This document shows, one piece after another, positions 13,252 through 39,540 of a stretch of DNA of 39,540 nt. Each line of letters opens with the position of its first letter. Position 1 is the stretch's first letter. The stretch is taken from NCBI GenBank assembly GCA_026026165.1, contig JAPEUD010000020.1, positions 310,001-349,540 of the forward strand. The letters are read 5' to 3'. This DNA is from Sarea resinae (taxonomy: Eukaryota). A model generated the notes under the pieces. That model made no database searches. It was not told the origin of the DNA and saw only the letters and a list, made by a program, of their open reading frames with translations. The translations under genes and the position numbers were made by a program.

Positions 13252-13673
13252 GGTTGTAAGCCTTAATAGCCTGCTAAAGAAGCCTATCCTCCTATAATTT
13301 CATAGCCTTTTCACCTATAGCCACTGAAATTCCTTTAAAAAAGAGTTAAGCTTTCTCTTTTTCACCTAAAAAGACTAGGTCCTATAGTCTTTATAGTCCC
13401 TAGGTAGTTATTTAGCTTTTAGATATATAACTTAGCTTGCAGTTAAGAACCACTTACAGTAGACTGCTTATATTAAGCCTATACTTATAGACATTAGGTG
13501 TATATATACTTAATAAAGATTTTCCTAATCCTTTGTGCTGCCTTATAGGTAAGTGCTTAATATATGCTGCCTTTACCTAGTCCTATAGTATCTATAGCTT
13601 GTGTCTATAGAACTATAGCATATCCTTAGCAGCTTGTGTTCTATAAAACAGCCTTTGTGCTAACCTTTTATGC

Positions 13674-15573: not shown

Positions 15574-15957
15574 TAGCACTAGCAAGGATATAGAGGTAGC
15601 TCTTACCTCTAAGAGCAAAAAACACTGTGATTATTAAAGGCTAAATAATTATAATAAGTCTATATGCTTTAAAAAGCACTTTAAGCTAAGGAAAAGCAAA
15701 AAGCCTAATGCTAAAAAGCATTGTGCTAACTCCTCTATAGTAGAGGAACTATAAGAGGAAAAGAGCTTTATAGCTATAAGCTCTAATTCCTATAGATACC
15801 CTAAATCAGTGTTAGAATGCACTGTTATAAGCACAGTGTTAGAATGCACTGTTATAAGTATAGTCCTAGAGAGAACTGTTACAAAGCTATAAAAAGGCAC
15901 TACTACACCTAAAGCTTTATATAGCTGTATAAAATTCAAGCTAAAATGCATTGTTAC

Positions 15958-16987
15958 TAGGGTAGCTGCTCTAACTAGATTTTCTAATCTAATAGTTCTG
16001 CAGATAAGGCTTACAGACTAGATAAGGCTAGTCTAGTAACCCATTAACTGTTAGAATTATAACCTTAATTCTAGTCACTCTTAAGTATCTAGACTGTTAT
16101 AGAATGTCATATAACAGTATAGATACATCTAGAAGCTTCTACAGACCTATAGAAGCTAATAGAACTCTATAGAATCTTATAGAACATTCTAGAAGATTCT
16201 ATAGCTATGCTGACTAAGCATCACTATATGCTGACTAAGCATCACTATATGCTGACTAAGCATCTAGAACCTTCTAGAACTTTCTAGAATGTTCTAGAAC
16301 TGTCTAGAAGTCTATAGAATCTCTTAGATATCTATAGAACTCTATGACATAAAGGTTACACAACTATCTCCTGACTTTCTTACAAAGCCTATGTCATTGT
16401 CAGCCTATTGCTTACAAATCACTCATGTAATTAGTTATCACTAGAAGTTTCTAGTAAGTTAGTCAAGTCTATATATTGACTGCCTTACACCTCTATAGCT
16501 AGAATCTCTAAGTTCATAATACACAATCATTCTTACTACACTTCTTTAGCACCTTCCTCTACTTATATCTTTGTGCTACCTTCTAACATTAACCAATAGT
16601 GTGTTAGTAGAACAATAGTCAACCCAACCTAGGATAATCCATTTTAATCCAACATGTAATTTTCAGCACTGTTACATACTGAGAACACACCTATAGGTGC
16701 TGTTTATATGTCTTACAGCATAGTTTCACGCACCTATAGGATGTAACAGTAACAACAAGAGGTAACGCTCTTTTTATTATATAGGAAATTGACTTTTCTT
16801 AGTGTTTATACACCCTAGACCTACGATTACATAAGCACTATGTCACGTGCAGTAGTGCCAAGAAAAAACCGACTAAACTTACAATTGGGTTGGATTTTAT
16901 ACTCTATAACCTATTCACTCTAGAAACCCACATAGGGTTAGTGAACCCTAACCCTAATCCGTTCAACCCAACCTATATGCCAGCCTA
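15958..16987. mobile_element. Non-autonomous hAT-type MITE (about 485 bp net) carrying a solo LTR
   Basis: 8-bp TSD ATTGTTAC at 15950-15957 and 16988-16995. Ends TAGGGTAGC / GCCAGCCTA. Subterminal AACCC/GGGTT repeats. Confidence 0.82.
16049..16588 (+). mobile_element. Solo LTR (copia family) inserted in the hAT MITE
   Basis: TGTTAG...CTAACA with 5-bp TSD TTAAC at 16044-16048 and 16589-16593. Confidence 0.92.
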
Positions 16988-17629
16988 ATTGTTACAGAGT
17001 AGATTCTTAACTTAGGTGTAACAACATATATCTGCTATAAGAGAGAACTTTTTAACAATCTTAGACCCTATAGTACTACTATAGCAACATGTATAAAGGA
17101 TATTAAACTAAGATTTACTCTAACAAATTAGGTAGTAAATATTAGAGATATCCTATATATCTCTAACTTTAGTGTAAACCTACTATCTCTAGAGGCAATT
17201 ATAAATAAGGGCTATAAAGTCAACTTTAGCTATAAAATATCCTTATCTAAGATAATAAGGGTAGTCTTACTACTAAAGAGACCTATACTACATTAGTAAA
17301 AAGAGAAGAGGTCTATGTAGATATAGTGTAGATACATAGTATGTAGTACTAGTTCTATGTAGATAGTAGTGCTACAGTATATCTACAGTGTTGTATAGCA
17401 ATATTGTAGTATATATACTTGTCTACTAGTAGATATAAAGGTAAATACATCTCTATATAGATATACATTGTCTTCTATGTACTTGTTATTAGGTTATATG
17501 TAGTAGATACTTGTTATAATATCTCTATAGAACTTATACATACTATCTATACTACATAGTGTCTACTAACAGCTACATAATATTAGGCAGTTGATTTTGT
17601 ACTACACAAGCTATATAAGCTATATAAGC

Positions 17630-20600
17630 TACACTAGAACTTCTATTAAACTTCTAAAATCTATTTAGTGAAGTATATTTCCTAGTTAATATATTTGTTT
17701 ACTAGAAAACGTTCTTTATAATCTAAGCTGTTAGAAGGTATCTTAATTACATAACTTAGCTCTATTATATCTTTAACGTGTATAATACACTCCTTATTAG
17801 TTATTAGATAGCCTTTACTATAAGCAGCTATATTGTCTAACCTTTTAATAATAGGTAGACAATGTATTATATTCTAACTCTCTAGTTGTTTAGCTTATAC
17901 CTAAGTGATTAAAGCTAGTAATATTAGAGCAAACCCTAGTATAGTAAGACTAAATAGAAATTAATATTAAGCTAATAAATAGGTGCTAACTAGCGCCTAT
18001 CTATTAGCTGTACTATATCTCTCTAGATAGTATACATTGTCTTTTACCTAAACCTAATTGTTTCTTCTACCTACACCTTGCTACAATGTTATACATTAGA
18101 TAGTTAACTCTAACATATCCTTATAGTTGTTATTTACCTCTTAGAAACACATTATAGAAGATGCTTTATCTATAAGCTAGCTACTTATATATAAGTTTAA
18201 TATTTGCTAGTTAATATTTAGCTGACTATGTTTACTAAACAATGTTTTAACAAATATTAGCAAGGCAATTATAAAGTCTAGTAGACCTAGTTTTACAATT
18301 TGTTCTAATAATTGTAATAGATATCTATTAAAACCTTTAAGGATAGGCAATCTAGTATTTAATATCTGTACTATATTAAGAGATAATAGCCTCTCTATAG
18401 CTATCTTACACGCCTTAAAATAGAAACATTAGTTATAGTATTTTAATATCTATAGAGTAGCATGTTAATAATTTAATGCTTACTAGCTTAACTTTACTAT
18501 TATTTAGTAGAGAGCCTCTAAACAGTTAGTAGAGAAGCTATAAAGAGACTTAAATTATCTGATTATAGATATATAGTGACTAATAATATGTATCTTAAGG
18601 AAGTTAAAATATGCACCTGCTTTTAGAGCCTCTTCTCTTATATAATCCTTTGCCTACTATATATTATCTTCTTTTCTCTAACTCTTATTAGAATATACAC
18701 TGTATTTCTGCTTTTGCTTTCTATTAGCTGTTAGCTAAGAAGCTCTTTATAAAGCTCTTTATAACACTATAGCACGTGCTGTTTAGGATACTAAGCGCGC
18801 TATAGCTACTATTCCTTTATTAGTATAAAATCTCTAGAAAATAGCTTTGTGTTTATAGAAGACACTTAGTAGAAGGTCTATACACTTAAGGGTTTTATTG
18901 TTATAAGTATATAGTTATATAAAGAAGATAAAGTTAATAAAGGACTGTATATATATTATTGCTTGCTTAAAATCCTAGTGCTGTTATACAAATAGATTTG
19001 CTAATAATATAGCTGTAATAAGGACTAGGAATTTTACTACATTCTGTATTTCTTTCTCTTACTACTATAATATCTAGAGATAGGTCTTAGTTAGCAGACT
19101 AAAAATTAGATACACTAGTATTACAGTCTATAGAGAGTTAAAAGTGTCTAGTTATTTGTATAGAAGTAGGAATGCTGCTAGCTAGTTTAGAAGGTGCTAT
19201 AGTATACCTATATAAACTTAATGCAGTAGATCTAGTTTTAGCAGATTGTAGATATTAACACTTAGCAGAAACTAGAGGCTATTAAGTGTCTTTCTAACAC
19301 CTTTCTACTCTAGCGTTTATATATTACTCTTCTTTAGAAGTTGCTAGTAGTTTGCTAAGTCTCTTACTATCTAGTTATTGTCTTCTAGATAACAACTAAG
19401 GTTAGCCTATAGATATTTATATACTAGATAGTAGCCTTATATAATATTGTATATTATAACAACCTCTTTATAGTTAGCTACTTACTTAGTAAGCTGTAGA
19501 AAACAATTCTAAGTATAACTATCTATATATAGTATCTATATACTATTCTCTCCTAGCTTTCTAAGTGTCTAAAGAGCCTAATCTAGTCTATTATAGTATA
19601 GTTAATAATAATAATTCTGCTTTTAAACGTTATTCGCTTTAATTTGCTTTAGATAAACTAGTAGAAGACCTAAGAGAATAGTTGCTTGCAATAAAGGTTT
19701 AGCTTAAAGCGTGCTTAGTAAGATACTAATTATAAGATATATTAGCTATATATACTTATCGCCTAAGAAATTAGTTAGATAAGTTTTATTAGACATATAG
19801 ATTAATAGGACTAGTGATAAGTTTTTAGGCAGTGTATCTTAGTAGATAGTTAGCACTATATCTAATACTAGATAAGTGTGATTTATATACCTAAGTCTGC
19901 TACTACTAATTCCTAGTATATATATCTAAGTATAGTTAAGTATTTTGTTCTCTATACAATTTTATAGGCGAATATACAAGCGCCTCTTTAAACTGTAAGT
20001 GTCTAAGTAGAAATAAAATACATCTTAAGAGATCTTTAAGATATATCTATATCTTTTTATTATAATACCCTAAGAAAGATATTTCTTTCTATTCTCTACC
20101 TAGCGTTCTAAGTATAGTTAATATCCTATCTAATTTTTAACGCAGAGTATATACAGATTAGAAACTAGAGCAGTCTTATCTTATAATGTTGTTATTAAAG
20201 AACTTATTAATTGCAGTTAAGGTAATATTGTTCTGTAGAAACTACTACGCTAGTCTATAGTCTTTAATAGTATTAAACAACGCTTAAGATTAACTAAGGT
20301 ATATATTATGTCTTTTATTTAATTGATTAGGCAATTTATATAGTTTGCCTACTAATAGATAAGCTATTAACTAGATAGCTATAAGCTTTGCTAGCGATTA
20401 TATATATAGTGTAGTCTTATAAGCTACTTTATCTAACAACTAACTACTATTATAATCTAGTTAATCTTTAGCGTAGTTAATATCTATCTTGCTATAGATA
20501 TCTGCTAGAATATTGCAGTTAGTATAGCTATTAGTGTTGTTGTTAATTGTAGAGCTAATATCTGCTATTTTACCTTAGTGTTTATTGCGTTTCTTAAATA

Positions 20601-20682
20601 ACAGTAGATTATAGCGTCTTATATATAAAGTTAACTATAGAGAGTGCGTTGTATTATAACTATATATATAGCATTTTAACAT
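17630..20682 (-). pseudogene. Plavaka-family transposase with N-terminal C2H2 zinc finger (RIP-inactivated)
   Basis: De-RIP reading: ATG 20682 with CxxC-x12-HxxxH; NPWAPFDTIEDYRLAWWF; MHTGNWWWQTQ|intron|DTLP...PLICMSDKTHLTNFSGDKHVWPMYLTIG about 19790; PDLLHQVYMG about 19230; SQWQGKEMRN about 19060; C-terminal FLVNKYIDW about 17690. End coordinate approximate. Confidence 0.88.
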
Positions 20683-21629
20683 TGCAATATCCTCTAGTAG
20701 TTGTTGCTATACATATAATAGTGTAGGTAATTGCTTTACACATTATATTTATAGAGGCGAGTTTAAAAGTCTAAAGAGTGACTAAGTTATTAGTTAGGTG
20801 ATATTAGTGTTAGTATATAGGCAACCTATACATTTATACTAATATAGGTAGATAAGGTAGTGATTTCTATTTCTACACATATATTAATTAATATACACCT
20901 TTATATTAAGCTTATATTAGGATAGGACTTCCTAAGCATAATTATTATATTGCTCTTACCTAGAAAAAGCATAAACTCTAGCAGACCTATATAGTACACC
21001 TAATTCTATAAGATTAGCACCTTACTAACTAAAGAGACTTAGTAGAGAAAAGTACCTTATTAGCTAACTGCTAGTAGCCTTTATTATCTACTCTCTAGTC
21101 CTTTAAACTAACTGTCTAGGTGATCTAAACAATTGTCTTATTATTAGCTATTAGATATATATTATACTCTTAATCTAACAAATAAAAGCAAGGCAGTATT
21201 ATAACGTTGTATAAAACGCATTGCAAGTTAGTATAAGATATATAACACTGTCTAAGCAAGGGCTAAACAAGTTAATAATTTAATTAGAGATATAATCTAG
21301 CAGGTAGACTTCTCTTTAGCCCTAGCAGATTACTTTAGATAACAACCTTAAAGATAGGCAGACTATTAGGAATACTTATATATTGTTATCTAAGATTGTT
21401 ATAAAAAGGAGCGAGATTAAAAGAAGAGAGAATATAGTCCTCTTATAGCAGATAGTGACACAACTAATAATAATAATAGAGAAGGCAAAGATAATAGTAG
21501 TACACTACTATCTACTAGCGTAGTAGAAATATTAACTTCTAGTATAAAGACTCTAACTAGTAAGTAATATCTAATACCTATTTAATATCTATATCCTTAT
21601 ATACTAGATAGTTAAACGTTATATTATCT

Positions 21630-22700
21630 AGGATATATACTATAAAGAGAACGCCTTTAAATCCTAGATACACTCTTTTCTATCCTCTTTAATAGAATCT
21701 ATCTAATAAGTTGTTAGACGCTATATACCTAGCTATAAGATAGTTTAGATAGACTTAGATATTAACTACTAGACGTTTTAGATTAAATATAATAGTGAGC
21801 TAGAGTCTGCCTTTAAACTTTTTCTAGAAGAAACTATACGTTTAAAAATTATAAGTGTAGCCTATAATATAACACTATAACTATTTAATAATATATGTCT
21901 AGATAACTAGACTATCTTTACCTAAGAGATAATTATCTACTAATTGTTATTATCTAGCATTACTAAAGAGATATATATCTGTATAAAACCTAATAAACAG
22001 ACAGATTACAGAAATTTACAATTTAGAAGAAGAGTAAGCAGATAGTATATCACTTAATTGTAGGATTAGACCTAAACTAATAATGTAGGACTCTTATCCT
22101 ACTAAGTACCTCTTATTACTAGCCCTAAACATGCAAGTAAAAGTAGTTTGCCTTAGAAGAGGCTATTATCTTGCTACCTAAGTAGTAGTAAGTAGATATA
22201 CTATACATATCTATTAGATATTACTAAGAGATAACTGTTGTTATATATCAGATAAAATTCCTATCTGCTTTGCTAATAAGATTATATACACAGATAAATA
22301 CAGCATACTAGAAAGACTAAAGAGGCGCTCTTATTATTGTGTATTAGATAGTTTAATTAATTATAATAAGCGTGTCTAGCGTGATAATAAAAGCATCTCT
22401 ATAATATATAACTATAATAAGATAGTAGGTGTTTAGCAGAAGCTTTCTCTAGTCCTTAGTAAAGAAACCTAATTATCTACTGCACTTTCTTTAGAGGTAG
22501 TTATATAACGTTCTATTATATAAACTATATATTAGTATCTGTTTTAAGTCTATTATATTATCTATATAATAAAAGTCAACTAATAGATAACACTATACAC
22601 TAGTCTAAATATCTAATTAGCTTTGTATAGTAGGTTAGCTACTCTAATTAGCGTTTAAGTGATTTAAAGACCTACTTTAGCTAAAGATACAGATAAATTT
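21630..22700 (-). pseudogene. Unidentified RIP-degraded cargo gene
   Basis: One minus frame over about 21630-22050 has only RIP-type stops and protein-like content (..IRPFIGFHTDVYLFGNAG..RRGWKGVYPGFEGVLF..). 5' extent is a guess and no family was recognised. Confidence 0.3.
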
Positions 22701-25304
22701 AGTGATAAACTAGACTTAATTTGTATGCAAATAAGATAATCTACTAATTGTATTAGTTATTAATCTGCTTCTATATAGTACTATATACTCTAGTCTATTG
22801 TTAAGGACTACTATAGCACGATATTATAGTAAGGTACTCTTAAGTATATTTATATATCTCTTAGTATACTATTATATAGTAGCTATATAAATCTAAGTAG
22901 ACTATAACTACCTACTATGTTATAGTCTAAGATATACCTAGGTAGGTACTATATCTACTATAGTACCTTACCTACCTAACTACCTAGTACATTGCTTATC
23001 TATTATATAACATAAGGTAGTGCTTCTAATATATGTTGCATGTATATAGTAGCTATTAGCTAAAATGCAGATTTTATATGCAGTGTTACTCTACTATTCT
23101 TACTCTACCTCTTTATTTAATATTAAAATGCTAGATATACTACAGTTAATACTCTATTATAAGACTCTATCTTAACATTATATTAGCAGACAGTTTACTT
23201 AAGTAGTAGACTAACTATTAGACTTTTATCACTAAGTAGACACTATACAAGTAGTGCTGCTATTTATATTGCTTTAACCTTACTCCTACACTAATAGCTA
23301 TCTAAAACATAAGCAAACTATTATCTATATAATATATTGTATATTAGATATAATATTAGTTAGAGGTGCAATATTACGCACTAGATATACTAATAGCATT
23401 AAGTGCTAATAGCTAGAAACAGTTAATAATAGCAACGTTTCTTTATCTTCTTTCTTATATATTATAATGTTATTATTCTTTGTTCTATTTAGTTAGCTCT
23501 CTATTTACCTTATATCTCTATTTACTTCTGCTACTCTTATTTGCTGCTGCTACTCTTATTTACCTTACGCTATGCTAACGCGTTATTTATCTAATATTAA
23601 AGCTATAAAACCCTTACTACCTAGTCTAGCCTAATTAAGAATTCCTACTAGATATAACCTTACTTTATTACTAATTCAGATAATTATTCTATTAAGATAT
23701 TAACTTTATCTCTAGCCTTATTAGCTCTTTACTTATATTCTCTTATGTTATTATCTTTTAGCTTGTTATATCTCTCTTAGTCTAGCAGCCTAATTATTCT
23801 TATTATACTAAACTTAAGTTTAGTGCTATACTTTTAGCCTTAATTACTTTCTACTTATTCTCTCTACTAGTTATCTCTCTACCTCTTAATATATTATAAC
23901 AATCTAGCTAAGTAAGCTACTCTCTTATTATACAACAGATATAACTAATAAGAGATATAATAGGATGTAGTTTGTTAACTAGAATAAGAGACAGTTATAA
24001 GACCTAATCCTTAAGTATAAGAACTTATAAAAGAGAGGCTATTAGAAGTGTACCTAAATCTAGGTGTTATATTAAACAAAGCTAAGACTAGATTATAAGA
24101 GGCTATCTAGCAAGTATTATCTAACTATAGCTGCACTAACCTTTAAGCAGCAGGAAATTATATAGTTAACACTATAATAGAGGACATGATATAATCTACT
24201 AACTTTCTAATACTATCTGCAGACTAAATTAGAAGACAAGCTGCTAGATAGAGCTATAATTAGGAACACCTATTTATTATTATATAAGATATCTATAAGA
24301 AGCTATAAGATAATATAAAGAAAGAACTACAATCTAAAAGTAGAACTCAATTATTGCTCTTATCTAACACCTCTAGTACTTTAGCTACCTCTTACTAGCT
24401 AGCTCTCTCTTAGTAGAAAGCTACTAAACAGATATTGCAGCAGCTTATAGAGATATCTATAAGTAAGAGACATATAATTATATTGATTAAATAGCACTTG
24501 CTAACAGCTAATAGACATTTAATCTAACTCTAATACCTTTCTACCTAGTAGCCTTACTACTCTTTATACACTAATACCTTCTTATCTACTAACTATCTAT
24601 ATAGCACCTCCTCTTATAGAACTACTAATAGGTAAGAGGTATATATATTTATCTATTAACTAATATTTGCTAATAGTTAATAGATAACTAACTAGCTAAA
24701 TAGTATATAACAATAGATAATAAGATAAGCACCTAACTTTTCCTACTATTATCTCTAACTATAGATAGTATCTGTAATATTATTGCTAGGTTTATCCTAT
24801 AAGCAGCGATTATTAATAAGATTAAGACAGATATAGAGAGAGAGAGAATTAGATTAGAATACAATAAAGAGGTTATACTAGTACTTAAGTTAGGCCTATA
24901 ACTAATTGTATTCTATGTTATAAGTGTCTCCTTATAAGAGTATATTAATTTCTAGTTGTTAACCTTATATAGGATGTAAAACGCAGAAACCTTAAGCAGG
25001 CTAGTAACAACTTAGTTTCTATACAGATAAGACCTAGACTAGGTATATACACTGTCTGCTATAAGGTATTATGTCTAGTCCTAATACAGTTGTTAACTGT
25101 CTAGTGCAACAGACTGTTTAATTATCTAACTAGAGACATATTATACAAACCTAAATGTAATAACACTAAATACTACTTTACTCTCTACTACTAAGACTAG
25201 CTAACACTTACTAAAGAGTTAGTTGTTAGGCCTTATAGCAAGTGTTAGCTAGTCTAGTAGCACACCTAAGTTGTTGTAACCTCTGCTATAAAAAACTTAA
25301 CAAC

Positions 25305-25430
25305 TATCTAAGAGTTAGTTGCTAGGCTTATCTAAGAGTTAGTTGCTAGGCTTATCTAAGAGTTAGTTGCTAGGCTTATCTAAGAGTTAGTTGCTAGGCT
25401 TATCTAAGAGTTAGTTGCTAGGCTTATCTA
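25305..25430 (+). repeat. Perfect 24-bp tandem repeat x5.25, between two ~115-bp direct repeats (about 25160-25275 and 25475-25590)
   Basis: Unit TATCTAAGAGTTAGTTGCTAGGCT, in frame with the SNF2 N-terminus. Confidence 0.95.
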
Positions 25431-25920
25431 CAAATAAATTGCTAGTTATAGATCTAGAACAAGACTGTTTGCTAATAACACTAAATATAACCTTACTCTC
25501 TACTACTAAGACTAGCTAACACCTACTAAAGAGTTAGTTGCTAGGCCTTATAGCAGGTGTTAGTTAGTCTAGTAGCACACCTAAGTTATTACTATATTAG
25601 CTAAAGGAAACGCAACGTCTGTTACTAGTTCCTAAGCTAGGTCGCTATAACGTTAAGCGTAAGCTGCTAGACTTAAACGCAGTACTATTCCTTATTACTA
25701 TAGAGCTAACTCCTTATAGACCTATCACTGCAAATTAAAGATAACATTTTTAATAAGCTTATATATAACCTAATAAGAGATAAGGCTAATAAAGAAGACA
25801 TTAATAGCAAGGATACTAATAAAGAGGATGTTAAGGATAAAGATAACAACAAAGATAATATTAATAATAATAATAGCAACAAAGATAACGTTAATAACAA
25901 GGATTATCTACCTGTTAAAA

Positions 25921-26070
25921 ACAATAATCTACTGCCTAATAATCCTCTAAATAATAATCTGCTACCTAATAATCCTCTAAATAACAATCTGCTACCTAAT
26001 AATACTCTATATAATAATCTGCCACCTAATAATACTCTATATAATAATCTGCCACCTAATAATTATCTAT
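25921..26070 (+). repeat. 30-bp tandem repeat x5 (Pro/Asp-rich peptide repeat after de-RIP)
   Basis: Unit approximately ATAATAATCTGCYACCTAATAATMCTCTAW, following an acidic tract. Confidence 0.9.
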
Positions 26071-29000
26071 ATAGCATAGAACATTGTCTGCCTAGTAAGT
26101 ACTAGAATAATAGGTAATAACCTCTACTAACTTTTGTCCTTACTTTATAGGCCTCTAAGACCTTAGTGCTTTTGCTAGCAAATAGTATAACAAATTAGAG
26201 AGAGTAGATAACCTAATTAAGAGAATAAACCTAGTGATAGCAAAACGCTAAACAGTTATTTAAAATAGTCTAGCAATTTAACATAACACACTCTAAATGT
26301 AGAAGGATATAGCAGCTATATTCCTTATTTCTAAACATATTGTATTAACAACCTAAATACCTATAAAGCTACTGTTCCTTTAAGCACCTATTTAACTACT
26401 ACTATATTAAGCTACAGCTATTATGTTTATATTACGCAATAAAAGCAACAGAATTAGAGAGGGGTTTTTAGCAGATAGAATAGGGTTTAGAAAGGTGTGT
26501 GTCTGCTGTAATATCTCTTTAATATGTACTTAAATTAATAGCTAATGCTTAATCTACTAGCAGACACTAATAACGTTAGCTCTTATTACTACTTTATAGA
26601 CCTTATACTATAATCACTTAGATATAATAAAGAGTTAGCAAATCTATAACAGAAGATATCTAAGGGCTAGTAGTAGGTATTATCTGTATAAGACTTTAAA
26701 TATTATATAACATTTTACTTACACTTATATTTGTTAGACAATATAGATAACAATACTAAATACAGCGTTAAGTGTTCTAGTAACAACTCTTATAAGATAT
26801 AATGCCTATATTAACTAGGATCTATAACCTCTTAAATCACTGTAGATAAAAGAGTGAATATAGTTATATACCTAGTATATCTTACTTGTATATAGGTAAT
26901 AGAATACTAAAAGTCGTTCACTATATAATAGATTGCTAAGAACCTAATAGTTCTTAAGCATAGCTAATAGGAATATAAGTTTACAGACTTAATAGAAACA
27001 GACTCTAGTAGCAAACACATAAGATTAAATATTATCCTAGTGATATTGTTTAAGTGTTTATAACTTTGCTGCAATTTGTAGGCAGAAACTTGATTTTAGC
27101 AGATAGTAGTAAATAAGGCGCATATTATTAAATTAAAGAACACTAACCTAATCTAAGACCTAACTACCTTAAGACAAAGCTATAAGGAACACTAGCCTAT
27201 AATGTAGTTCCTCTCTAGCACTCTATTTATTATGCCTAGAGACTTAAGAGAGAAGGTAAATATTCTTATATATACTTAATAGATAACTAATCTCTCTTGT
27301 ATTAGATAAAAATGCTTGCCTAAAAAGTTAGACTTTATTAAAAGTCAGTACAAAAATCTATTTAATTGTATAGCAAAACCTAACAGACTATAACTGCCTC
27401 TTACTAATAAAGACTTTAATTAATATGCCTAGAATTTTATTAGCTTCCTTAGTGTGCTAATAATCTAATAGGATAAAAATGCAGTTAACTTAGATAGCTA
27501 CCTGCTAATTAACCTCTTACTATTCTACAGATATAAATTATTAGTCTAGTTTAGCAATAACTGCTAGAAGATAGTATACAAACAACAACAAGCTATTATA
27601 GTAGTAAGAACAAACTAAATTCTAGAGTTAAATAAAGGATAACGCATTACTTTAATAATATATTTCTAATATATATAGCGACTACAAATTATCTCTTTAT
27701 TCCTAGGCCTTACCTACTCTAATCTAGCTAGGTTAGACTAGAGCTTATTAAGCGTTAGGTCTATAGCTACTAAGGATTAGGAATTATATCTGTTGTATAA
27801 TAATCTAGAAATACTTAGCTAGTTATTCTCTAAATTAAAAGTACTAGATAATCTTATTAATAATATAGGAGTGAATTTAAGGATAGAGAGTAAAAAGATA
27901 GTTATCTTTACTATATTCCTAATCACAGCCTTTATTATTATAATAGTAAGTAGTATTTATCTACTAGATAATATACTTAGGCTAATAGCAGATATATAGT
28001 AGATAAAATATATTAGATACAAGCTAGTTGCTCTATTCTATAGTAGAATCTCTATAGCAAAGCGCTTAAGGTTAGTAGAACAATTCTAAGGCACTATAGA
28101 TATATTCTCTAGCTTAGAACCTTTTTACTTAGTTAGGACAATAGGTATAATATTACTAGGCTTAACCTTAATTCGTGCAAATCTAGCAGTTGTCTTTAAA
28201 CCTAATTATATAGACACCTCTAAGTAATAAGCACTTAATAGAGTTTACTATATTAGCTAGTATAGCAAGGTGAGTTTGTATTAATTTATTAACACTAAGT
28301 CTGCAATTAAGAATATACTTATAGCTACCTAGAGGTTAAGAGGTATCTTAAATAACATAGCCTTAAAGAAGAACAATCTGCTAGTTCTGCTACAAGTTAA
28401 AGTTAAGATTAGTAATAAAGATAATATAGATACTAAAGATAATAACCCTTACTATTAACCCTATAATATATAAAGAAGATAAAGACAAATAGAACATGTA
28501 ATAAACACAGCTAACATAAGTTTTTATTTAATTATAGACAACTTTATAATACTAAAAGCAGTAGATATATATGTCTACTACTCTTAAGACTATTATCGCC
28601 TACTCTTCTACTATACTCTATTCTAGCAGCCTAGTAAGGATTGCAGCAATAGTTAGTTCTAAACTATAAGTGTCTTCTAGATAACTTTAATAAGGTATAG
28701 AAGCTAATATCTGCTAATCTACTTTAAGTTAGTCTCTTTTATTCTATTTAGTGTTGTTTTAATTAGTCTAAGCATGTATAAATCTAAATTAATTATATAA
28801 GTTGTCCTAATAGCAATATAATTGTCTGTTAATTTGTAAAGATATAATTTAAGTAATAATACTTATCTCTACTTAGACTAACAATTCTCTCTCTCTTTAA
28901 ATTCCTATTTAACACTAATATCTCCTACACACTAAACTCTTAGCTATCTAAATCTACTCTATATAGAGAAGCTAGTAACTTTTACAATGCCTCTTAAACA

Positions 29001-31363
29001 ACTCTAGACTTATTCCTAGCAAGATATTTAGTCTGCTAAGGAATAAAAACTTAACTACTTTACTAATAGTAATACTTATTTCTATCTCTACTTATCTAAT
29101 CTATGCTAAACAAAGTAGTTGCCTTCTATAATACTTGCACTTAATAAAAGACTACTACTAAAGGACTAAATATAGTTTAAATCTAGTGATTGCTACTACT
29201 ACTTCTCTAGTCTAAGAGCAACTATAGCTAATGTTATTAGATAGCAATAAAGAGAATTATAAGCGAGCTATAATATCTCTAATATAAAGCCTACCTAGTT
29301 AGTTATCTAATGTTAGCGCTATATCTGCTGCTAAAAACGCAGAAGATAGTAATAATTCACTTAATCTAATAACATAGAATACACCTACTTAGAGAAGAGG
29401 ATATTAGTTAGACAGCACTAAGGGTCTAGAAAGTTAACTTATACTAGCAACTCCTAATAGCTAGATAAGTACACTAATAGATAAAGAAGTATCTAGGCGC
29501 AATTGTCTGCCTAGAAAGAATCTAAATAAATAAGAGTGTCTTTATATAATAAGAAGACAAATAATAAGCCTTAAGCTAAATCATATTAAAGTGAACTTAG
29601 TTAATTGCAAAGAGAGTACACTAATAAGCAGACAATATATATCTAATAACACCTAGGCTACCTTATACTTAGTAGAACAGCAATAAATAAGTAGTAAGGC
29701 AAATTAAACTGTAAGAGAATTACCTATAAGATTCTAAGATCTTCTAATAGATAGACATCCTATATATAGGTCTACTACTAGTTAGAAGGCAGCAAAACAA
29801 ACTAACTAAAGAGATATCCTTTAGAAGCTTAACCTTTTTAACAGATAACTACTAGAAAAGCTTTATATATAAGATCTATTAACAAACACTTTCTAGAACA
29901 GATTATTAATACTACCTCTACTATTATTAGCAAGTCTTACTCTTAGAGTACTTGTTTTTAATTTTACTTATAGATAATAGGTTCTAAGTAATAATAAAGG
30001 ACTCTTATCCTCTAGTCTCTATTCTAGAGCAGTTAGTAATAACTTAGACTCTACCTCTACACATGTTTTTAATAAGATAGACACACTAAGAACGCTACAC
30101 TAATTATCTAGCACTCTATAAACGTTTATAAATAATTAGAGTGTAGGTTTAAGTTAGCTTCCTACACTAGATATAAGAGCATATGTAAAGGTTTAAGTGT
30201 ATTTAAAAGAGTGCTATCTACACTATAGGTATTAAGATATTTATCTAATAGCTAAAGTAATAATAAAAATATATGTTATTACTTAGAACTCTTTCTTAAA
30301 AAGCAATAGTATAGCTACTATCTATGCTAATATATAGGACTAGGCTTATATAAAGGCAAAGGCAATTAAGATAGAGTATTAATTTCCTTATCCTATTAAA
30401 GACTCTAAACAATATAAAATAGAGCTGCCTGTATATATTAAACCTATAGTAAGTAAGACTATTAAGTAATATTTCTACTATCTACCTACTAACTCTAAAT
30501 AATTAAATCTTATTAGCTATTAATTAGAATAAGCTAGTAATAAAGATATATTGTATTATAGTGTTATTAACTAGTAGTAGACCTGTATAATCTGCCTCTT
30601 ACTAAACTAGAACAACTTAAAAGGAAAGTAAGTCAACTACTAGATTAAGATAGTTTTAACTGTTAGAATATATCTATTTATATACAAATCTCTCTACTTG
30701 TTTGTTAGACCGCCTCCTAGACTTCTAGCTATAGTAGAGTAGGTAGGAATAGCATAATTAAATAGGCTAGTGCACTGCAGCGTGCTAGCGTCACTCTAGC
30801 GATGCAGAACTAATACTATAGATATAGATATTGCTAGTAGGCACTGACTTTGTAATTGCACTAAACGCTAGCCCTAATAGCTAGCGCCTCTATTAATCTA
30901 TATAACTAATAACCCTGCTTAGCTTACCTAAACGTTGCTGAACCACACTAGGTGGTTACCCTGCGCTGCGCTAAGCTGCATACAGCACCCTTATTAGTAG
31001 TAGCCTTTACAATTACCTTCTCTCCTAGGACCTAGTCCTCTAGGTCCTTTGTTCGCGATGTATAACATTATAGTGTTAAGTCTTTGTCTTGCTAGCGCCT
31101 TAGTGGCGTTGCTATTCGCTGCAAACAGTGAATTTGTGTAGATAACAAAGAGAGTTCTTTGTCCTATTTGCTTAGTTTACTAAACGCTGCGCTAGGGTGG
31201 TAGCAGTGAATAGATAGAGTGAATGCTTTAAACTGTCTGCATTAGGCATTCTCTCTATCGCTTAGAGGTCGCTTAGCTATAGGTGTGTAGGTATAAAACG
31301 TAGGTGATCTAGTGCGCGCGCGCATAATCAAACTTTTTGCACCACGTTTTAGGTACATTCTAT

Positions 31364-32061
31364 ATGCCTATTATAAATCCTAGACGCTTTGCCGCGCCTC
31401 TACCACGTGTGAACCAGCCTGCCGCCGCCCTCTAAAAGCCTGTAGAACTGAATCAGGACGTCTGCCTCTGCTACGCTAAGGTTATTAGGTCTACGCTAGA
31501 TATTGTCTGTACAAAGGCCTTATTAGCTGCAAAGTGCACACAATATACTTAGTTGCATAAGAAGTGTAGTTAGGTAAGTGACTCCTACATAGTGCTAGCC
31601 AGGCTCTAACCTAGCGTGCTAAAGGTGCCTACAGTCTTCTGCAAGCGCCTGAACTAGCTTACTAAGGCGGCTAATGTAGTGGTTAGCTACGCTAATAACA
31701 ACTCTACTAAGGAGCTGTTAGCCGCTGCGCTCTGCGATCTACAGAGGCGATTCACTTGCTAGGTCAAAGTCTATATAAACGCTGCTAACAAGCACCTGTC
31801 TAATAACGCGCTCTATATAGCTATAGCGACAGAACGACTTGCTAATAGCGTTAAAAGCCTTAATAATATCCTCTAGTTTGCTGTAAGTCGCATGTAGAAC
31901 GCTAGCAATGCGACAGCGCTAACCTAGTCATCTAGTTCGATTTGCTATCTGTTACACGCGCAGGTAAGAGTGACAATAAGGATAATAACAATACAACTGC
32001 GCCTCTAGAGAGGTCTAGCAATCAGGCTAGTCAGGGCTAGGCAGGGCAGACTAGTTAGTGA
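31364..32061 (+). pseudogene. Antisense spliced accessory gene in the gypsy 3' region, Zn(II)2Cys6-like
   Basis: ATG 31364. Pattern C-x2-C-x11-C-x8-C-x2-C-x6-C from 31463 (two Cys read TAC/TAT, RIP-type). Phase-0 introns 31574-31624 and 31883-31935 with GTAAGT donors and CTAAC branch points. Acidic tail. Confidence 0.7.
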
Positions 32062-32619
32062 TAGGATAGTAGTTCTTTCTGTTTCCTTTGTATACTAGAT
32101 AGCTTTAGGTTCGCGCTAGGACAGCGCTAGAGGTTAATTTCACTTTTCTTTTCTATGACTTTATCTCCTCTTATAACTGTAGCATTGTAGCCCTATAGCC
32201 TAATAGCCTTCTACAGAGACTGTACGCTGTTAGCATACAATCGCATCGCAGGCCTACCCCTACATTAGCTCGCTAAAACCACCTAAAAACCTTTGTAGGT
32301 AAAAGAGGTAGAAAGAGTTCTAACAGCAGCTCCTTACTAGTGCTGCAACAGCGTGTCCTTTCTAGGACAGCTGCAAGGTCTCTTTCTTGCAATCACCTAC
32401 AGCTTTAGGCTATACTTCTATAGCCTTCCTTGTAGGCGTTTCGTTACTAGCATCTCTAGGCTAGCTAGGGGTTCCTTATAGGGTAGTAGATTCTTCCTTA
32501 GGCAGCCTCTTAGCCTCTTAGCTGTCGCCTCTACAGCGCTATCACTAAGCAGTCGCTTCCTTAGTTAACTGCAAGGCTTAGTTAACAGCACACTAGCATC
32601 CTATTCCTTGTTCGCTAGG

Positions 32620-35600
32620 CCTCTATGCTAGTTAGAGAGTAAGTGCTGTTTATAATCCTATACTAGGTCTATAGCGTTTGCTAGGTGCTCTGCTAGCTCC
32701 TAGCTAGTATTATCTACTAGAGCTCCTTTCTACTTAACTAGATATTGTTGTTCTCTCTTAAGTACTCTATAGCCTAGGATTTTCTTAACAATCTACTTAA
32801 CCTAGCTATTAACTAGCTTAAAGTGCTAGTGAAAGGTATTGCTGTCGCTGTAGTAGCGCTTAAGCAGCGACATATGAAATACAAGGTAGATAGATCTATA
32901 AGCCTTAGAGAGCTATAACTAGTAGGCTTGCTTGCCTATAGAGTTAAGTACTACAAATAGGCCTATATAGCAGTGCTCTAACTTCTTGCTCAGGCGTATA
33001 GTGCTAAGGTTGCGCGCTGACAGCATAACTCTGTCGCCTCTTTTGTATTGCATTAGCTTATGTTTCTTATTATACCACTTAGCTTAGTACTGCTATGCCT
33101 TAGTAAGATCCTCTTCTAGTCTTTGTCTTACCTCTTAGAGGACGTTAAGGCGCTTGTTCGCCGCTAGCACCTCTCTCTCTATAGCATTGTCTGTGATATT
33201 AAGTTGCAGATCTAGGTTATAGCTATATAGGGCATAAAAGAGTGACATTCCTATAGATAAATGTATGCTATTATTGTATGCATACTTAGCTATAGGTAAC
33301 AGCAGAGCCTAGTCGTCCTAGCAGCTGCTTATATAGCACTGCAGGTAGTGTTCTAACGTCTAGTTTTGCCTCTTAGTCTAGCTATCTGTCTGCAGGTAGA
33401 AGGCAGTGCTAAGCTAGTTCTTAATTCGCATTTAATAGCATATCGCTAACTAAAACTTGCTTGCAAATACACTGCCTCTATCTGATACAATGCGCTTCAG
33501 ATTGCTATACGCTGTTGTCACAACGTCGACAAATATATCTGCAAGCATAGCAGCATTTAGATTTGTTTGGCATAGAATATATTTCGCTATCTTTGTATAG
33601 CAGTCAACTACTACTATTATTATGTCACAGGCCTTGCAATCTCTTATGTTGCTTAGCAGCAGGCCTGTCACAAAATCTATAGTGATTTCTTTAAACAGCT
33701 AGTAGGGCATAGGTAACGACTGTAGCTCGCTATATAGGCGATGCCTAGGCACCTAGACCCTTTAACATATATTGCACTCATTGATATATTCTTTGACATC
33801 CTTAGCTAAATTAGTCTACTAGTATTTACGCTAGATCACCTCTGTCGTTCTCTTAGCGCTAAAGTAGCTACTAAACAGGTTATTATAGTTTATCCTTATA
33901 ATTTCTAACCTAATAGCCGCATCACGCGGCATATATACTTTGCCTTCTAGGTGTAGCAGGCCTATAGAGTCTATTTTCCACTTTTCTTAGCCTGTAACCT
34001 CCTTAGTAGGAATGCTTTTAATCTTTTCCTTAGCGAAATAATCTTTCTACTAAGTCCTAAGGATAACGTTAAGCAGCTAGCCTGTTAGCAGGTTGTACGC
34101 TCTTTTATTAGCAGCTGCTTTATACACTGCTTGTCTTATATAGAGGTGTTTAAACTCATCTCTTAATGCTGGCTCATTAGCATTGTTATTTAGGCTAGGC
34201 CTAGGTGTCACTCTAGTGCCTCCTTATCGCTCTTTAACATTAGGCTAGGTTTTATCCTATAACCTAGAAGGGGTTTTAATCCTTTGTAGATGCATATTAT
34301 CCTTTGCGCTTAGACTAGGTGTTATCCTAGCGCGCTGCTGTCGCTTATTAACAGTAGGCAGAGTGTTATCCCCTAACCTAGAGGGGTTTTTAATCCCTTA
34401 TAGATGCACATTATCCTTTAGCGTATTAGCGCCTATTTTGCCTAGATGCTTATTATCTGTTCTAGCAAGAAGGTTTTAGATCACTAGCGTAGTGCTGTCT
34501 CTCTTTAACATACGCAGGTTCTGCAGCTTCTGCTGCAGAGTAAGAAGCATTACTTCTAGACCCTGTGTCTTTACCTTGTAATCAGGGCGCCACAACAGCC
34601 TGTCAGCTAGATTAGCTTTCCCTGCTCTATATACAAGTTTAAAATCATACGCTGCTAGCTGTTCAGCCTATCTAGCCTAGCAATAGGTTAACTCCTTTGT
34701 TGTTATAAAGTAGCGTAGATTTGCATAGTTAGTTAAGACCTTAATAGGGTAATTAGCCTCTTCTAAGTAATAGCGCCATTGCTTAAAAGCTATTACAATA
34801 GCTAGCAACTCTAAGTCATGCACTTTATATCTCGATTCAGTATTAGTAAGCTTTCTAGACTAGTATGCAACTAGGTGCCACCTTAACGCTGTTGTCACGC
34901 CTTGTTTATCCTTGACTAGCTAGGATAAAATTGCTGCAACAGCAAATCTAGAAGCGTCTGTTTCTACTTGTATCTGCCTCTTTAGATTGTAGTAGCGCAG
35001 TATAGGCGCCGTTGTAAAAGCTTCTTTTAGGGCTTTAAATACTTCCTTAGCTTCCTTAGGGAAGTAGAATAGACTGCTTTTCTTTCTGTTCTTACTCCTA
35101 GCAAGCAGGCTAGTTAACAGCAGCGCTTTAACAGAGTATTTCTCTATAAACTGTTAGTAGAAATTCGCGAATCCTAGGAAGACTTAGAGGTTATAATAGG
35201 TCTTAGAGGCTAGCCACTCTTTTATAGTGTCTACCTAGCTCTTCTCTATCGCGATACTATTAGTCCTAATAACAAATCCTAAGAAATCAACTTCCTACAC
35301 TCTAAAGACACATTTTAAGGGCTTTGCATATAGGCTATAGGTTGATAGCTGTTTAAGGACCTAGCGTACATGCTTCTTATACTTATTAGGTGAATTAGAG
35401 TATATAAGAATGTTGTCTAGATAGACAACGCAGCAGACGTTAACTAGGCCTTATAACGCATAATTAATATAGCTCTGAAATGTAGCAGGTGCATTAGCTA
35501 ATCTAAAGGGCATAACCTTATATTCGAACTAGCTGTAACAAGTGCAGAACGCTGTCTTATACTTGTCGCCTTTGCAGATCCTTATGCAGTAGTAGGTATC

Positions 35601-37733
35601 TCTTAGGTCTAGTTTCGAAAAAACTTTAGCACTGCTTATTTAGTCTATAAGCTTAGAAATAAGGGGTAATAGGTATTGATTCTTAATAGTGACCTTGTTT
35701 AACGCCTAGTAGTCGACGCAAAGTCGCAAGCTACTATCCTTCTTAGGCACAAACAAGATTAGCGCACTAATAGGGCTTATAGAGAGGGTAATCTACCCCT
35801 TCGCTAAGCTGTTGTCTAGGTAGGTCTGTAGGATACCTAATTCTTTCTAGGATAATAGATATATAGGACTATAGAGAGGGTCTTTACTCTCTAACTTAAT
35901 AGTATAGTTAGCTAGGCTATGCTTAGGAAGCTAGCTAGCTTCCTCTTTACTAAAGACAGAAGCAAATTCCTTATACTATTTAGGTATCTCGTCACTAGCG
36001 CTGACCTAGCGAAGCTTCACTGCCTCTACAGGTTTAGGCACTACTATAATCCCTTAGCAGTTTAGCTGACGTTTCTTCTAATGTTCCTTGCTAAGCCTAG
36101 GCTTATCTATAGGCTTAACATAGCTGAATTTACCTTCTAACTAACGCATATTGTAGCGGTATAAGGACAGCTATAGATACCTAAGCAAGAATAGAGGACT
36201 ATTAAAGTCGCAGGCAAGGAACTAGCACTACACTGTCTTCCTTATGCTATTACTATTAGCGACTTGTATTTCTAATTAGTGTTAGCTGTAGATCGCTACT
36301 CGCAAGCCGTTCACTATTACTGCGCTAGGTAGCTGCCTAAGCTTAGCCTTAGAGATCCTATGCTCCTTAATCTATGATTGCAAAACTAGAGAAGCTTCTA
36401 CTCCTAAGTCAATTAAGGCAGTGCTATCTGCTGTACTACTAGGGGTGCAAATAGTTAGCGACGTCTCTAATTTCAGGGTTAGAGCTTCTTAAGGTTCTCT
36501 TACACTAAGATAGCAAATAGTGTAGGGTTCTAGCTCTAGTTATAAAGCTAGCGTAGGCCTGTTGTTGCGTTTGTTCTTGCAAGTAGAAGCAAAGTAGCTC
36601 TCTTAGCTACAGTTTAGGCAAAGGTTGCCTTCTTACTTGCAGCAATACTCCTTGTTAGGGAGCTGTTAAGGCCACTGTATAGACTTATCGCCTTTATTAT
36701 CCTTAGGCTAAGCAGAAGTTTTTTGTTCTTACAGAGGTAGGCTTTTGCCCTTGCGTTTAGTAGGATTAAACTTTTGTTTAGTTCCTTGTTTGTTCTAACT
36801 CCTTCCTTTCTCTGCGCTATCGCTATGCTGTCGCTTATTGTCTAGCTTAGATAGATTAGAGTTCTTATTCTTATTCCTTTTATTGCTTATACAAAGGAGT
36901 TCCTCTACTTGATTTGCTAACGCTACAGCAGCGCTCTACTTTTGTAGTATTAGCAGGGTTTAGAGCAGTTCCTAGTAAATTTCACTTTAGATCTTAGTAT
37001 AGAACAAGTTGCATCGCTGCTCTTTAGAGATGTCTTATCCTCCTAGCACTTCTAGTTTAATCTGTTCTAGGAAAGCTGCAAAGCTATTAATACTCTAGTG
37101 CAGCGCCTGCGTAGCGTTATAGTATAGCTATGATATTAAACCACCTTGATTTACTAGATCTTCTACTTAGTCTAGCAGGAATAAGACAAATTTATCCTAG
37201 GTATAGGTGTCTTTTCTAGTAGATTCTTTAACCTAGTGCTACGCTAGCGCTGGTTTGTCTTTCAGGTACTGCATAGCATATAGCACCTTTGCTACATTAT
37301 CACTTTTGTCTGCAATAGCACCTAGTTAGAACGCTATCTTATAGGATCAGACAAATTCATTATACTCCTTAATTGTCTTGCCTGTAAATAGCTCTAGAGC
37401 TTGGATTTTAGTCTAGTTAGTGATGCAAGGTGCTAGCGTAGCAGCTGCAAGGCCCTGTTCTAGCTGCAATGCTTACGCAAGTGCTTGTAGTTGCTGTTCT
37501 GCATAGAACTAGGCTATCTCTCTCTAGAGTTAACAATATTAAGCCTGCTGCTCTTTAGCGTCACGCTCTTGCTGTATTTAGTCTAGCAATTAATTAGTAA
37601 TCTAGTTAGAGACAGGCTCCTTAACCTTACCTTCTGCCTAGCTCGCTACTGTCTCGCTATTATCTCTATTAGCTCTCTTACCTAGCAGAGTATTAGGAGC
37701 CCTTATAGTATTACATGTATTTATTGTCGCTAT
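32620..37733 (-). pseudogene. Gypsy gag and pol relics
   Basis: Zn knuckle CLNCGQEGHFASTC about 36600; protease ALIDSGA about 36410; RT VYLDDILIYS about 35415; RNase H VETDASGFAV about 34960; integrase IVSDRGSVF about 33480; chromodomain QYLVKWKG about 32740. Confidence 0.92.
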
Positions 37734-39078
37734 CTCGCCTAGTCTACTGCTGTGTTAGTAGAGCGTTTAGAATTGTTAGACCGCCTCCTAGACTTCTAGC
37801 TATAGTAGAGTAGGTAGGAATAGCATAATCAAATAGGCTAGTGCATTGCAGCGTGCTAGCGTCACTCTAGCGATGCAGAACTAATACTATAGATATAGAT
37901 ATTGCTAGTAGGCACTGACTTTGTAATTGCACTAAACGCTAGCTCTAATAGCTAGCGCCTCTATTAATCTATATAACTAATAACCCTGCTTAGCTTACCT
38001 AAACGTTGCTAAACTACACTAGGTGGTTACCCTACGCTGCGCTAAGCTGCATACAGCACCCTTATTAGTAGTAGCCCTTACATTGTTTTAGTTATCTAAT
38101 AGTTTTTAGAGAAAGAAAGAGAGATTATTCTACCTAGTAATTGTATGTGTTATACTTAAAGAGTTCTTTAACAAGGTCTAAAAACTAGCAAATATTAGTT
38201 ATATATTAGATGCTTTTAAACAGATCACCTATTAGCTAATATATATTATATCTACTGCACTCTATTACACTCTCTCTAAATAAGAAGAAAAGAGCTTTAC
38301 TTCTTAAGATTTTACTAGAGATAGTGTAAGTAGTAAGTAACTAGCTAGATATAATAGCTAATAAATAATATAACAGCTAATAAACACTTAGAGGTCTACT
38401 AGCGCTAGGTAGCTACATAGAATTTTCTAAGCAGTTAGTAATAAGAGGCTATCCTTCTACTAATAAAGAAAGCTATTAATAATAGCAATACTTTAACTCT
38501 TAGAAAAGTCTATATTCTAATAGAAGGGTTCTACAATAATAAAGAAGAGGATCTAGAGGATCTAGGCCTATTATCTAAAGAACAAGTTAAATTACAAACC
38601 TAATTAGCTAGAGCAGATACTAGGTAGTATATTAATAGTTTACATTATTATTAACTAACTAACCTATTCTCTTAGTTAGTAGATTTGCTGTATAATTAAC
38701 ACTATTTTTTGCACTATATAGACTCTATATAATAAGTTATTTATGCTATATAGTAGCTACTAAAATACATGTGTATTCTGTATTTATTAGTAATACAGTA
38801 GGTGTCTACATGTATTTTATCTAATCTCTAGAGATTAGTAAGTATAACTACTAGAATCTATTATAGTCTACTAGTAGGTAAAAGAATAGTTATATAGTTA
38901 ACACTAATATATTATGTAGAAGATATATAAAGTCAGTGTATTCTATATAGTACTATAGTAGCTGCTACCTAAACTACTATACATGTAGCGCTACAGCGTT
39001 AACTGTTTATAACATAGGTAACATAGGTTACACAACGCACTTGTAGTTACCTATAGCACACCTCTCTTTTTGCTAATA

Positions 39079-39404
39079 TAATAAGCTTAGTGTCTTTTAG
39101 ACTAAGGCTATACTTATAGTGCTAAATAGCACTATAGAGGATAATAGCCTAGATATATAGCATAGAAGACTAGGATATATAGAGGAAAGTGCTTTAAAAA
39201 GGCTAGAGAAGAATATAGAGCTTAGGTAGTGTTAAGTCTAAAGACTTAGATATTAAAGACTATACTATCTGCTTAGAGGCTAAATTTACTAGAAATACTA
39301 GTAAACCCCTTGTAGAAAAGCCTAAGGAATACTTTAAAATTGTCTATAGTAATATAGAGAGTCCTATAAAACCCCTAACACCTAGTAGTAATAAATACTA
39401 TATT
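39079..39404 (+). pseudogene. Copia pre-integrase/integrase relic resuming after the giant insertion
   Basis: De-RIP DIWHRRLGHI at 39152, CTICLEAK about 39260, IVHSDIGGPIKP.T.GGNKYYI about 39340-39404. Confidence 0.88.
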
Positions 39405-39540
39405 CTTAGGTACCTACTCTATATATCCTAACACTGTGTTATTACAGTATTAATAGTATCTAACACCTTCTATAGGTGTTAAGACAGTGTTGTAACAGTG
39501 TTAAAACTAAAGTAGGTGTTAAGACCTAGTAGTAACTGTA
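39405..39540. mobile_element. Probable left end of a further insertion into the copia integrase
   Basis: Integrase similarity stops abruptly after KYYI and is replaced by non-coding sequence rich in GTGTT/AACAC repeats. The other end is outside the window. Confidence 0.4.

Follow-up and report, generated by a model that had tools for sequence, protein, structure and literature searches.

The window analysed here, a stretch of 39,540 nucleotides of contig JAPEUD010000020.1, contains the relic of a Ty1/copia retrotransposon that is interrupted by an insert of 21,788 bases (positions 17291–39078). This insert probably represents a dead member of a multicopy family of 14.4-kb cut-and-paste transposons that belongs to the PlavakaB lineage (EnSpm/CACTA-related 'CMCT' group) and carried an SNF2-like passenger gene; the insert also holds a nested Ty3/gypsy element. 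As judged from its sequence, the element is a real, well-bounded and dead PlavakaB transposon, and the SNF2-like passenger is a probable, weakly proven part of it. The surrounding DNA carries the marks of repeat-induced point mutation (RIP), in which C>T and G>A changes are made mostly at CpA. The features that define the element and its insertion site are the following, with the basis of each given last.

14773–17290, plus strand: left portion of the Ty1/copia relic, RIP-mutated and spanning gag to Pol_BBD, interrupted after 17290; Pfam matches
17289–17290: TA, left copy of a putative 2-base target-site duplication; sequence
17291–17308, plus strand: left terminal inverted repeat, CATTAGTAAAAAGAGAAG; sequence
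17742–20892, minus strand: relic of a Plavaka DDE transposase in two frames that switch near 19830–19893, with 82 in-frame stops; match to PF18759, limits from stop density
26521–28380, plus strand: probable relic of an SNF2-type ATPase in one frame, with 49 in-frame stops; solved-structure matches and motif pattern
38088–39060: right subterminal part of the Plavaka element, without a detected gene; RIP indices as in 17291–30700, abutting 30702 in other copies
39061–39078, minus strand: right terminal inverted repeat, whose reverse complement is TATTAGCAAAAAGAGAGG; sequence
39079–39080: TA, right copy of the putative target-site duplication; sequence
39080–39540, plus strand: continuation of the copia relic (GAG-pre-integrase region), running off the window; match to PF13976

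Ends of the element and the interrupted retrotransposon

For Pfam scans of relic DNA we used read-through translations in which in-frame stops were replaced by X. On the left side of the insert these gave a weak match to Retrotran_gag_2 at 14773–14991 (E 0.08) and a match to Pol_BBD at 17006–17215 on the plus strand (E 5.5e-05), and on the right side positions 18–44 of the gag_pre-integrs profile (PF13976) were found at 39131–39211, again on the plus strand (E 2.1e-05), with the reading frame directly past 39079 giving NKLSVF..DI*HRRLGY. The copia domain order of gag, Pol_BBD and gag_pre-integrs is therefore found across the insert and, since Pol_BBD lies to its left and the next copia domain to its right, the relic is broken by the 21,788 bases in between; the copia integrase and reverse transcriptase would fall beyond the end of the window. 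The split of the copia pol frame at 17290/39079 was a claim of an earlier note made from the letters of this DNA, as were the 18-base inverted repeat at the junctions and the net size of the element as given below, and all three held.

The two ends of the insert, which coincide exactly with the break in the copia frame, form an inverted repeat of 18 bases with 15 identical bases and three transitions, beyond which the likeness is lost; the chance of purine/pyrimidine agreement at such fixed positions is about 2^-18. The ends are CATCAGCAAAAAGAGAGG-type inverted repeats and read CATTAG..CTAATA (CATTA..TAATA). PlavakaB families have been described with ends 5'-CATCA..TGATG-3' and target duplications of 2 or 3 bases (Kojima 2025, PMC12730594), and the ones found here depart from those ends solely by C>T and G>A changes at CpA/TpG, the site preferred by RIP, so that the PlavakaB terminus is present only if RIP transitions are allowed for. 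As listed in the supplement to the same paper (PMC12730594), Plavaka-11_AB of Agaricus bisporus begins with CATCAGCAAAA. These first 11 bases are shared by the present element but for one C>T: the left end differs from them by that C>T at CpA and, at position 7, by a T in place of the C that the right end retains, and the two ends combined read CAT(T)AGCAAAA.

The TA on either side is compatible with a 2-base duplication, which is weak evidence taken alone, TA making up 17% of the local dinucleotides. A 3-base duplication was ruled out because CTA and TAA do not match. After subtraction of the nested gypsy element and of one copy of its TTGTT duplication, the Plavaka element measures 14,403 bases.

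The Plavaka transposase relic

The profile PF18759, a match to which has been used as the definition of an autonomous Plavaka (PMC8290104), was found on the minus strand at two segments, as expected from the minus-strand Plavaka transposase that had been proposed for this DNA. Profile positions 110–325 correspond to 19179–19817 with 76.1 bits (E 3.7e-21) and positions 25–98 to 19894–20085 in the other frame with 32.9 bits (E 5.4e-08), both above the curated cut-off of 26.3 bits. These scores come from a scan in which TAA was read as Q and TAG or TGA as W, and they exceed the match obtained with stops read as X, which had an E-value of 7.5e-15. The stops number 56 and 26, 82 altogether, all being TAA or TAG, and there are many missense changes in addition. 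Going by stop density, the transposase gene seems to have started near 20.9 kb and to have ended near 17.7 kb, its direction being towards the element's left end. Protein searches with the RIP-mutated transposase returned no matches.

Copies of the element and their mutation

The GC content and the RIP indices were alike in the segments 17291–21000, 21001–26000, 26001–30700 and 38101–39078. In a public run, X1, which may derive from the same sample as the window, 61% of the sequence words sampled from 19000–28999 were present, and contigs of this run aligned to 16900–30750, at a likeness of at least 80%, in 4056 pieces, with 1745 at an identity of at least 99%, 1450 at 95–99%, 772 at 90–95% and 89 below 90%. 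The summed contig depth, which is no copy number, was 5752–9700 in all 28 interior bins, with the transposase and SNF2 parts alike, and the depth of each of eight listed pieces was 360–426. Only 87 pieces lay partly on the stretch, with a share of 0.01 continuing into unlike sequence. Compared with the window, the contigs differed at 612 places, by 601 transitions and 11 transversions. The picture is one of many diverged, RIP-mutated and collinear copies of the whole 13.4 kb. Because these variant contigs, differing by transitions, cover the 13.4 kb, the family is multicopy and RIP-mutated, and because the SNF2-like stretch is repeated to the same degree as the other parts of the element, it belonged to the transposon family. 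The earlier proposal that the insert is a Plavaka-group DDE transposon bounded by these ends, and that it is multicopy and RIP-mutated, is supported. Runs X2 and X3, from other organisms of the same study, gave four and three short low-complexity pieces, respectively, which are uninformative as to presence or absence.

The earlier note had allowed that the SNF2 segment might prove to be a separate nested element. That the Plavaka master copy had received another mobile element unrelated to it, for instance one lacking inverted repeats, and that the SNF2-like gene was part of this, is in our view very improbable. Some room for it is left by the regions 20.9–26.4 kb and 28.4–30.7 kb, which are without a recognisable gene, and by a loose end at 24439 in four run X1 contigs, a structural variation among copies. 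Against it stands the finding that inverted repeats within the element, compared at the purine/pyrimidine level, numbered 5 of at least 24 bases as against 6.2 expected, hence chance, with the pair that flanks the SNF2 part being an AAT-rich low-complexity run. Moreover, no long direct repeats delimit the SNF2 part within the element, and Pfam gave no second transposase, reverse transcriptase, Helitron or recombinase domain at 16.5–30.7 kb. The RIP indices are the same along the element and the depth is similar in the 28 interior bins. The SNF2 part is as repeated as the transposase, and no internal repeats set it off as a nested element.

The four contigs with the loose end diverge just before 24440, and the loose end matched nowhere else in the window; some copies of the family therefore differ structurally at this place.

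The SNF2-like relic

We consider 26521–28380 to be very probably the relic of an SNF2-family gene, on the basis of weak but family-specific likenesses. When 27841–28380 (180 amino acids) was compared with the sequences of solved structures (177,635 distinct ones), all 11 matches were SNF2-family motors, with E-values of 0.01–0.97, namely a Rad54-like protein, RAD26, INO80 (three matches), RAD5 and ERCC6 (five matches), all aligned through the helicase C-lobe. This C-lobe stretch occupies 28012–28320, with motif IV recognised by eye at 27892. A read-through of 700 amino acids gave a single match, to zebrafish Rad54 (E 0.075), and five control stretches gave 0, 2, 0, 0 and 0 matches, the two being unrelated tyrosine phosphatases. 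In the same frame and 263 codons upstream of motif IV, a DEAH-like NKAH and a TGTP-like SSTL were found at 27103–27225 (IVVNKAHIIK...FLSSTL). We take DEAH and TGTP to be SNF2 motifs II and III, from which the RIP changes D>N, E>K, G>S and P>L would yield NKAH and SSTL. The RIP-degenerate pattern of motifs II and III occurs at one site in 54,278 codons (six frames of 12400–39540) and in none of 100 shuffles. The frame is kept over about 620 codons with 49 stops, a stop density close to that of the transposase relic. The presence in the element of a Rad54-, ERCC6- or INO80-like relic, not assignable to one subfamily, is supported with moderate strength.

A number of observations weigh against reading the insert as a Plavaka transposon with an SNF2 passenger. 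The Pfam profiles SNF2_N and Helicase_C did not match 26401–28500 or shorter pieces of it at E-values up to 10, nor did Pfam give any SNF2 match on the plus strand of 20001–39540. Using phmmer with the SNF2 stretch against 1.84 billion representative proteins, 0 proteins were found at E up to 0.001, and a word-based protein search found none at E up to 10. The N-lobe stretches 26521–27420 and 26521–26970 had no match among solved structures, 26971–27330 matched there just two unrelated phosphatase chains, and visual inspection of the relic revealed no convincing Walker A motif. The best single E-value for the SNF2 likeness is 0.01, and the pattern of motifs II and III, having been composed after the sequence had been seen, is support and not proof. 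The contig depths cannot prove that both genes were present in every copy, and no second copy with identical ends at another locus was found among the run X1 contigs listed. Excision of the element together with one TA leaves the copia frame one base off the Pol_BBD frame, which a one-base insertion or deletion in the 75 unanchored bases at 17216–17290, or another duplication length, would explain. Any function of the SNF2 protein, finally, is pure inference.

The right-hand copia frame (39079–39130) is in phase with the frame starting at 14503, and Pol_BBD sits in the frame of 14501.

The negative outcome of all profile and large-database searches, together with structure E-values of 0.01–0.97, is also what would be seen if there had been no SNF2 gene, with a chance likeness having arisen in AT-rich, RIP-mutated DNA of an element made up of a transposase and long non-coding sequence. 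We regard this as improbable, since all 11 matches fell to one family and were aligned at the same domain, since the five control stretches were without such a pattern, and since the DEAH/TGTP-like pair is independent of them, in the same frame and at the expected spacing. Of the plus-strand SNF2 gene that the earlier note had described, what remains is thus a set of weak, family-specific structure matches with a motif pattern, unsupported by Pfam, phmmer and word-based searches; of the profiles which that note had named for checking a deRIP consensus, Plavaka matched the mutated DNA itself, and SNF2_N and Helicase_C did not.

Proposed history of the element and role of its passenger

The Plavaka element would have been inserted into the copia retrotransposon with duplication of TA, by a cut-and-paste transposition with 2-base duplication such as its family suggests, and the Ty3/gypsy element would subsequently have landed within it. 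RIP would have filled all copies with stops, leaving no present-day function. The SNF2 relic, which lies about 6 kb from the transposase and points in the opposite direction, may have been an accessory gene of the transposon.

Accessory genes of transposons are, to our knowledge, rare, and the known ones all seem to target host silencing marks. They include TET/JBP in fungal Plavaka and KDZ elements, PAG1-3 in red-algal Plavaka and VANC in VANDAL elements. By analogy, an SNF2 protein might have translocated DNA or remodelled chromatin, and so have made chromatin accessible to transposition or worked against silencing, a role which we propose because the TET/JBP and PAG passengers of other Plavaka elements have such proposed roles. 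As a tentative extension, a Plavaka lineage may, in a RIP-competent ascomycete, have recruited an SNF2-type remodeller or translocase as a standing accessory gene.

The main rival, which we hold to be unlikely, is accidental capture: a Plavaka master copy would have taken up all or part of a host gene, now seen as the SNF2-like stretch, which was then amplified passively without serving the element. CACTA-type and Pack-MULE elements do capture host gene fragments, the protein searches found no relatives and hence no sign of a transposon-borne SNF2 clade, and the even contig depth is equally compatible with passive co-amplification. However, the one frame of about 620 codons, running from the DEAH-like motif to motif VI, resembles a whole intronless gene rather than a fragment, and working accessory genes are present in other Plavaka families.

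Should the accessory-gene interpretation be true, the element would be the first known case of a DDE transposon with its own Snf2 motor, and such a transposon-borne motor would add a mechanically different tool, that of nucleosome or DNA translocation, to those listed above. The motor could force access to silenced chromatin or escape from it, in parallel to TET/JBP, VANC and PAG, and the range of PlavakaB would be extended to a RIP-active ascomycete. The value of the finding is that of a lead, the copy being dead and the SNF2 identity resting on weak matches; unmutated relatives in fungi without RIP are conceivable.

The nested Ty3/gypsy element

The part of the insert between the SNF2-like relic and the right subterminal region is largely taken up by a second retrotransposon, with the following features.

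30698–30702: TTGTT, left target-site duplication of the nested gypsy element; sequence
30703–38082, minus strand: nested Ty3/gypsy retrotransposon with long terminal repeats, 7,380 bases; Pfam domains, terminal repeats and duplication
38083–38087: TTGTT, right target-site duplication of the nested gypsy element; sequence

Its long terminal repeats (30703–31011 and 37774–38082) have the form TG..CA and are 97.7% identical. Pfam placed the pol domains on the minus strand, with RVT_1 at 35268–35750, RNase H at 34647–35057 (matched by two RNase H models), Integrase_H2C2 at 33756–33917 and SH3_Tf2-1 at 32853–33038. The two TG..CA repeats, the 5-base duplication and the pol order of reverse transcriptase, RNase H and integrase are those of a Ty3/gypsy element. 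Two run X1 contigs go from 30703 straight into sequence matching 38089 onwards, with 2 of 30 bases differing; the gypsy element is therefore missing from other copies, and the kilobase to its right is part of the same unit as the remainder of the Plavaka element.

The heavy and uniform RIP that had been ascribed to the whole insert holds for 17291–30700 and 38101–39078 but not for the gypsy element, which has a GC content of 0.407 versus 0.27–0.28 in the surrounding Plavaka element and is therefore less mutated and younger than it. Even so, the indices of the gypsy element are RIP-like (TpA/ApT 2.01) and its pol contains 40 stops; RIP therefore continued after its insertion.

Remaining interior of the element

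Just upstream of the SNF2 relic lies a block of repeats, as follows.

25158–26105, plus strand: internal repeat block with tandem and periodic arrays; repeat analysis

It includes a tandem array of 24-base units at 25281–25469, set between direct repeats of 118–144 bases, and an array with a period of 15/30 bases that encodes an N/L/P-rich sequence and constitutes the sole open reading frame of at least 80 amino acids in the element (25710–26105).

General Pfam scans covered both strands of 16501–39540 at E-values up to 0.01–0.1. The regions 20.9–26.4 kb, 28.4–30.7 kb and 38.1–39.06 kb had no match in Pfam or among solved structures, so that the several kilobases of other gene-like relics proposed earlier were not recovered by these searches, which is not proof that genes are absent there, as RIP conceals even the SNF2 relic from Pfam. 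Two candidates, a T-rich plus-strand stretch of low stop density at 22691–23590 and a stretch at 28991–30340 from the stop-density scan, matched nothing and were rejected. The lack of TGA stops as a mark of former open reading frames was dropped as well, TGA being rare in all six frames (0.16% of codons). No Tet_JBP domain and no domain of the PAG1-3 type (methylase/SET, ParB/2OG oxygenase) was matched in these scans, although RIP could mask them.

Likewise, no tyrosine recombinase or DUF3435-type domain was matched within the same scope, in agreement with the earlier statement that none was present, with the reservation that RIP damage could mask one. Starships, which are driven by a tyrosine recombinase 'captain' and span tens to hundreds of kilobases in filamentous Pezizomycotina, share with the present element that they are passenger-carrying mobile elements of filamentous ascomycetes. 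They differ from it in that we here find a DDE transposase, short inverted repeats and a size of 14.4 kb, without a matched recombinase domain. The term 'giant' that had been applied to the element therefore seems unwarranted, 14.4 kb being a size that CACTA-type elements also reach and much smaller than that of Starships.

Comparison with known transposons

The closest parallels were found in PlavakaB elements of Agaricomycotina, for which passengers of the TET/JBP type are known (PMC12730594). As far as they are described in that source, they share with the present element the Plavaka transposase, the CATCA..TGATG termini (RIP-altered here), the 2-base duplication and a passenger beside the transposase, but their passenger is TET/JBP, in place of which we find an SNF2-like one (with no Tet_JBP match), and all copies here are mutated. 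The Agaricomycotina hosts are mushrooms, whereas the present host shows RIP and is, as judged from the RIP signature only, probably an ascomycete of the Pezizomycotina.

Plavaka elements with 2-base duplications have also been reported from an ascomycete, the Chinese white truffle (Tuberaceae; PMC12581995). An ascomycete host, the 2-base duplications and a CATxx terminal motif are thus shared; the truffle motif is CATAC, however, and the passage on these elements in that paper mentions no SNF2 passenger.

Giant Plavaka elements of 17.4–19.1 kb with three accessory genes have been described from the red algae Bostrychia and Chondrus, where a third of one red-algal genome consists of them (bioRxiv 10.1101/2025.02.11.637652). 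According to the parts of that preprint that describe them, they resemble the present element in being large and multicopy, in having accessory genes whose supposed targets are chromatin or DNA marks, and in their internal tandem arrays, which there adjoin an accessory gene. They differ in belonging to another kingdom and in having several accessory genes, PAG1-3 (N6-adenine methylase with SET, ParB with 2OG oxygenase), whereas one recognisable passenger and no such domains were matched here.

A motor protein as second function is known from the helicase-encoding DDE transposons KolobokH (RecQ) and AcademH of fungi and animals (PMC9587614, PMC10045372). As described there, these combine a cut-and-paste DDE transposon with a helicase-type motor of superfamily 2, as would the present element, but their transposases are of the Kolobok and Academ superfamilies and not of Plavaka, and in KolobokH the RecQ is fused downstream of the transposase, whereas here the SNF2-type ATPase is on the opposite strand.

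The suggestion that the whole architecture was undescribed must accordingly be narrowed, as Plavaka elements with accessory genes, PlavakaB termini, ascomycete Plavaka and helicase-bearing DDE transposons have all been published. In the literature searched, which did not cover Iyer et al. 2014, no SNF2 gene was reported for any Plavaka or EnSpm element. What is probably new is therefore an SNF2-like passenger on a Plavaka-type element, with Plavaka elements carrying passengers and Plavaka in an ascomycete being known already, and not a new class of transposon.

Surroundings of the insertion

The GC content is about 0.47 in the first 12.4 kb of the window and 0.27–0.41 from there to its end. 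Beyond 12.4 kb the index TpA/ApT is 1.59–2.25, versus 0.72 in the gene part, and the index (CpA+TpG)/(ApC+GpT) is 0.38–0.87 versus 1.29, and both of these usual indices are far inside the RIP range. Ordinary genes at 6286–9203 and 10234–12337 adjoin the repeat block. Two open reading frames of the gene part have RRM domains (E 9.5e-18 and E 3.9e-43), a further one has a weak TEA/ATTS match (E 0.0074), and one of 454 amino acids is without a Pfam family.

A repeat of about 540 bases was found in three copies, at 12783–13252, 13674–14214 and 16049–16588. The second and third are mutually inverted and 98.9% identical over 541 bases, amid RIP-mutated DNA, and the first is about 82% like the other two. 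A run X1 contig connects 15951 straight to 16990, and 15952–16989 is therefore extra in the copia copy of this window.

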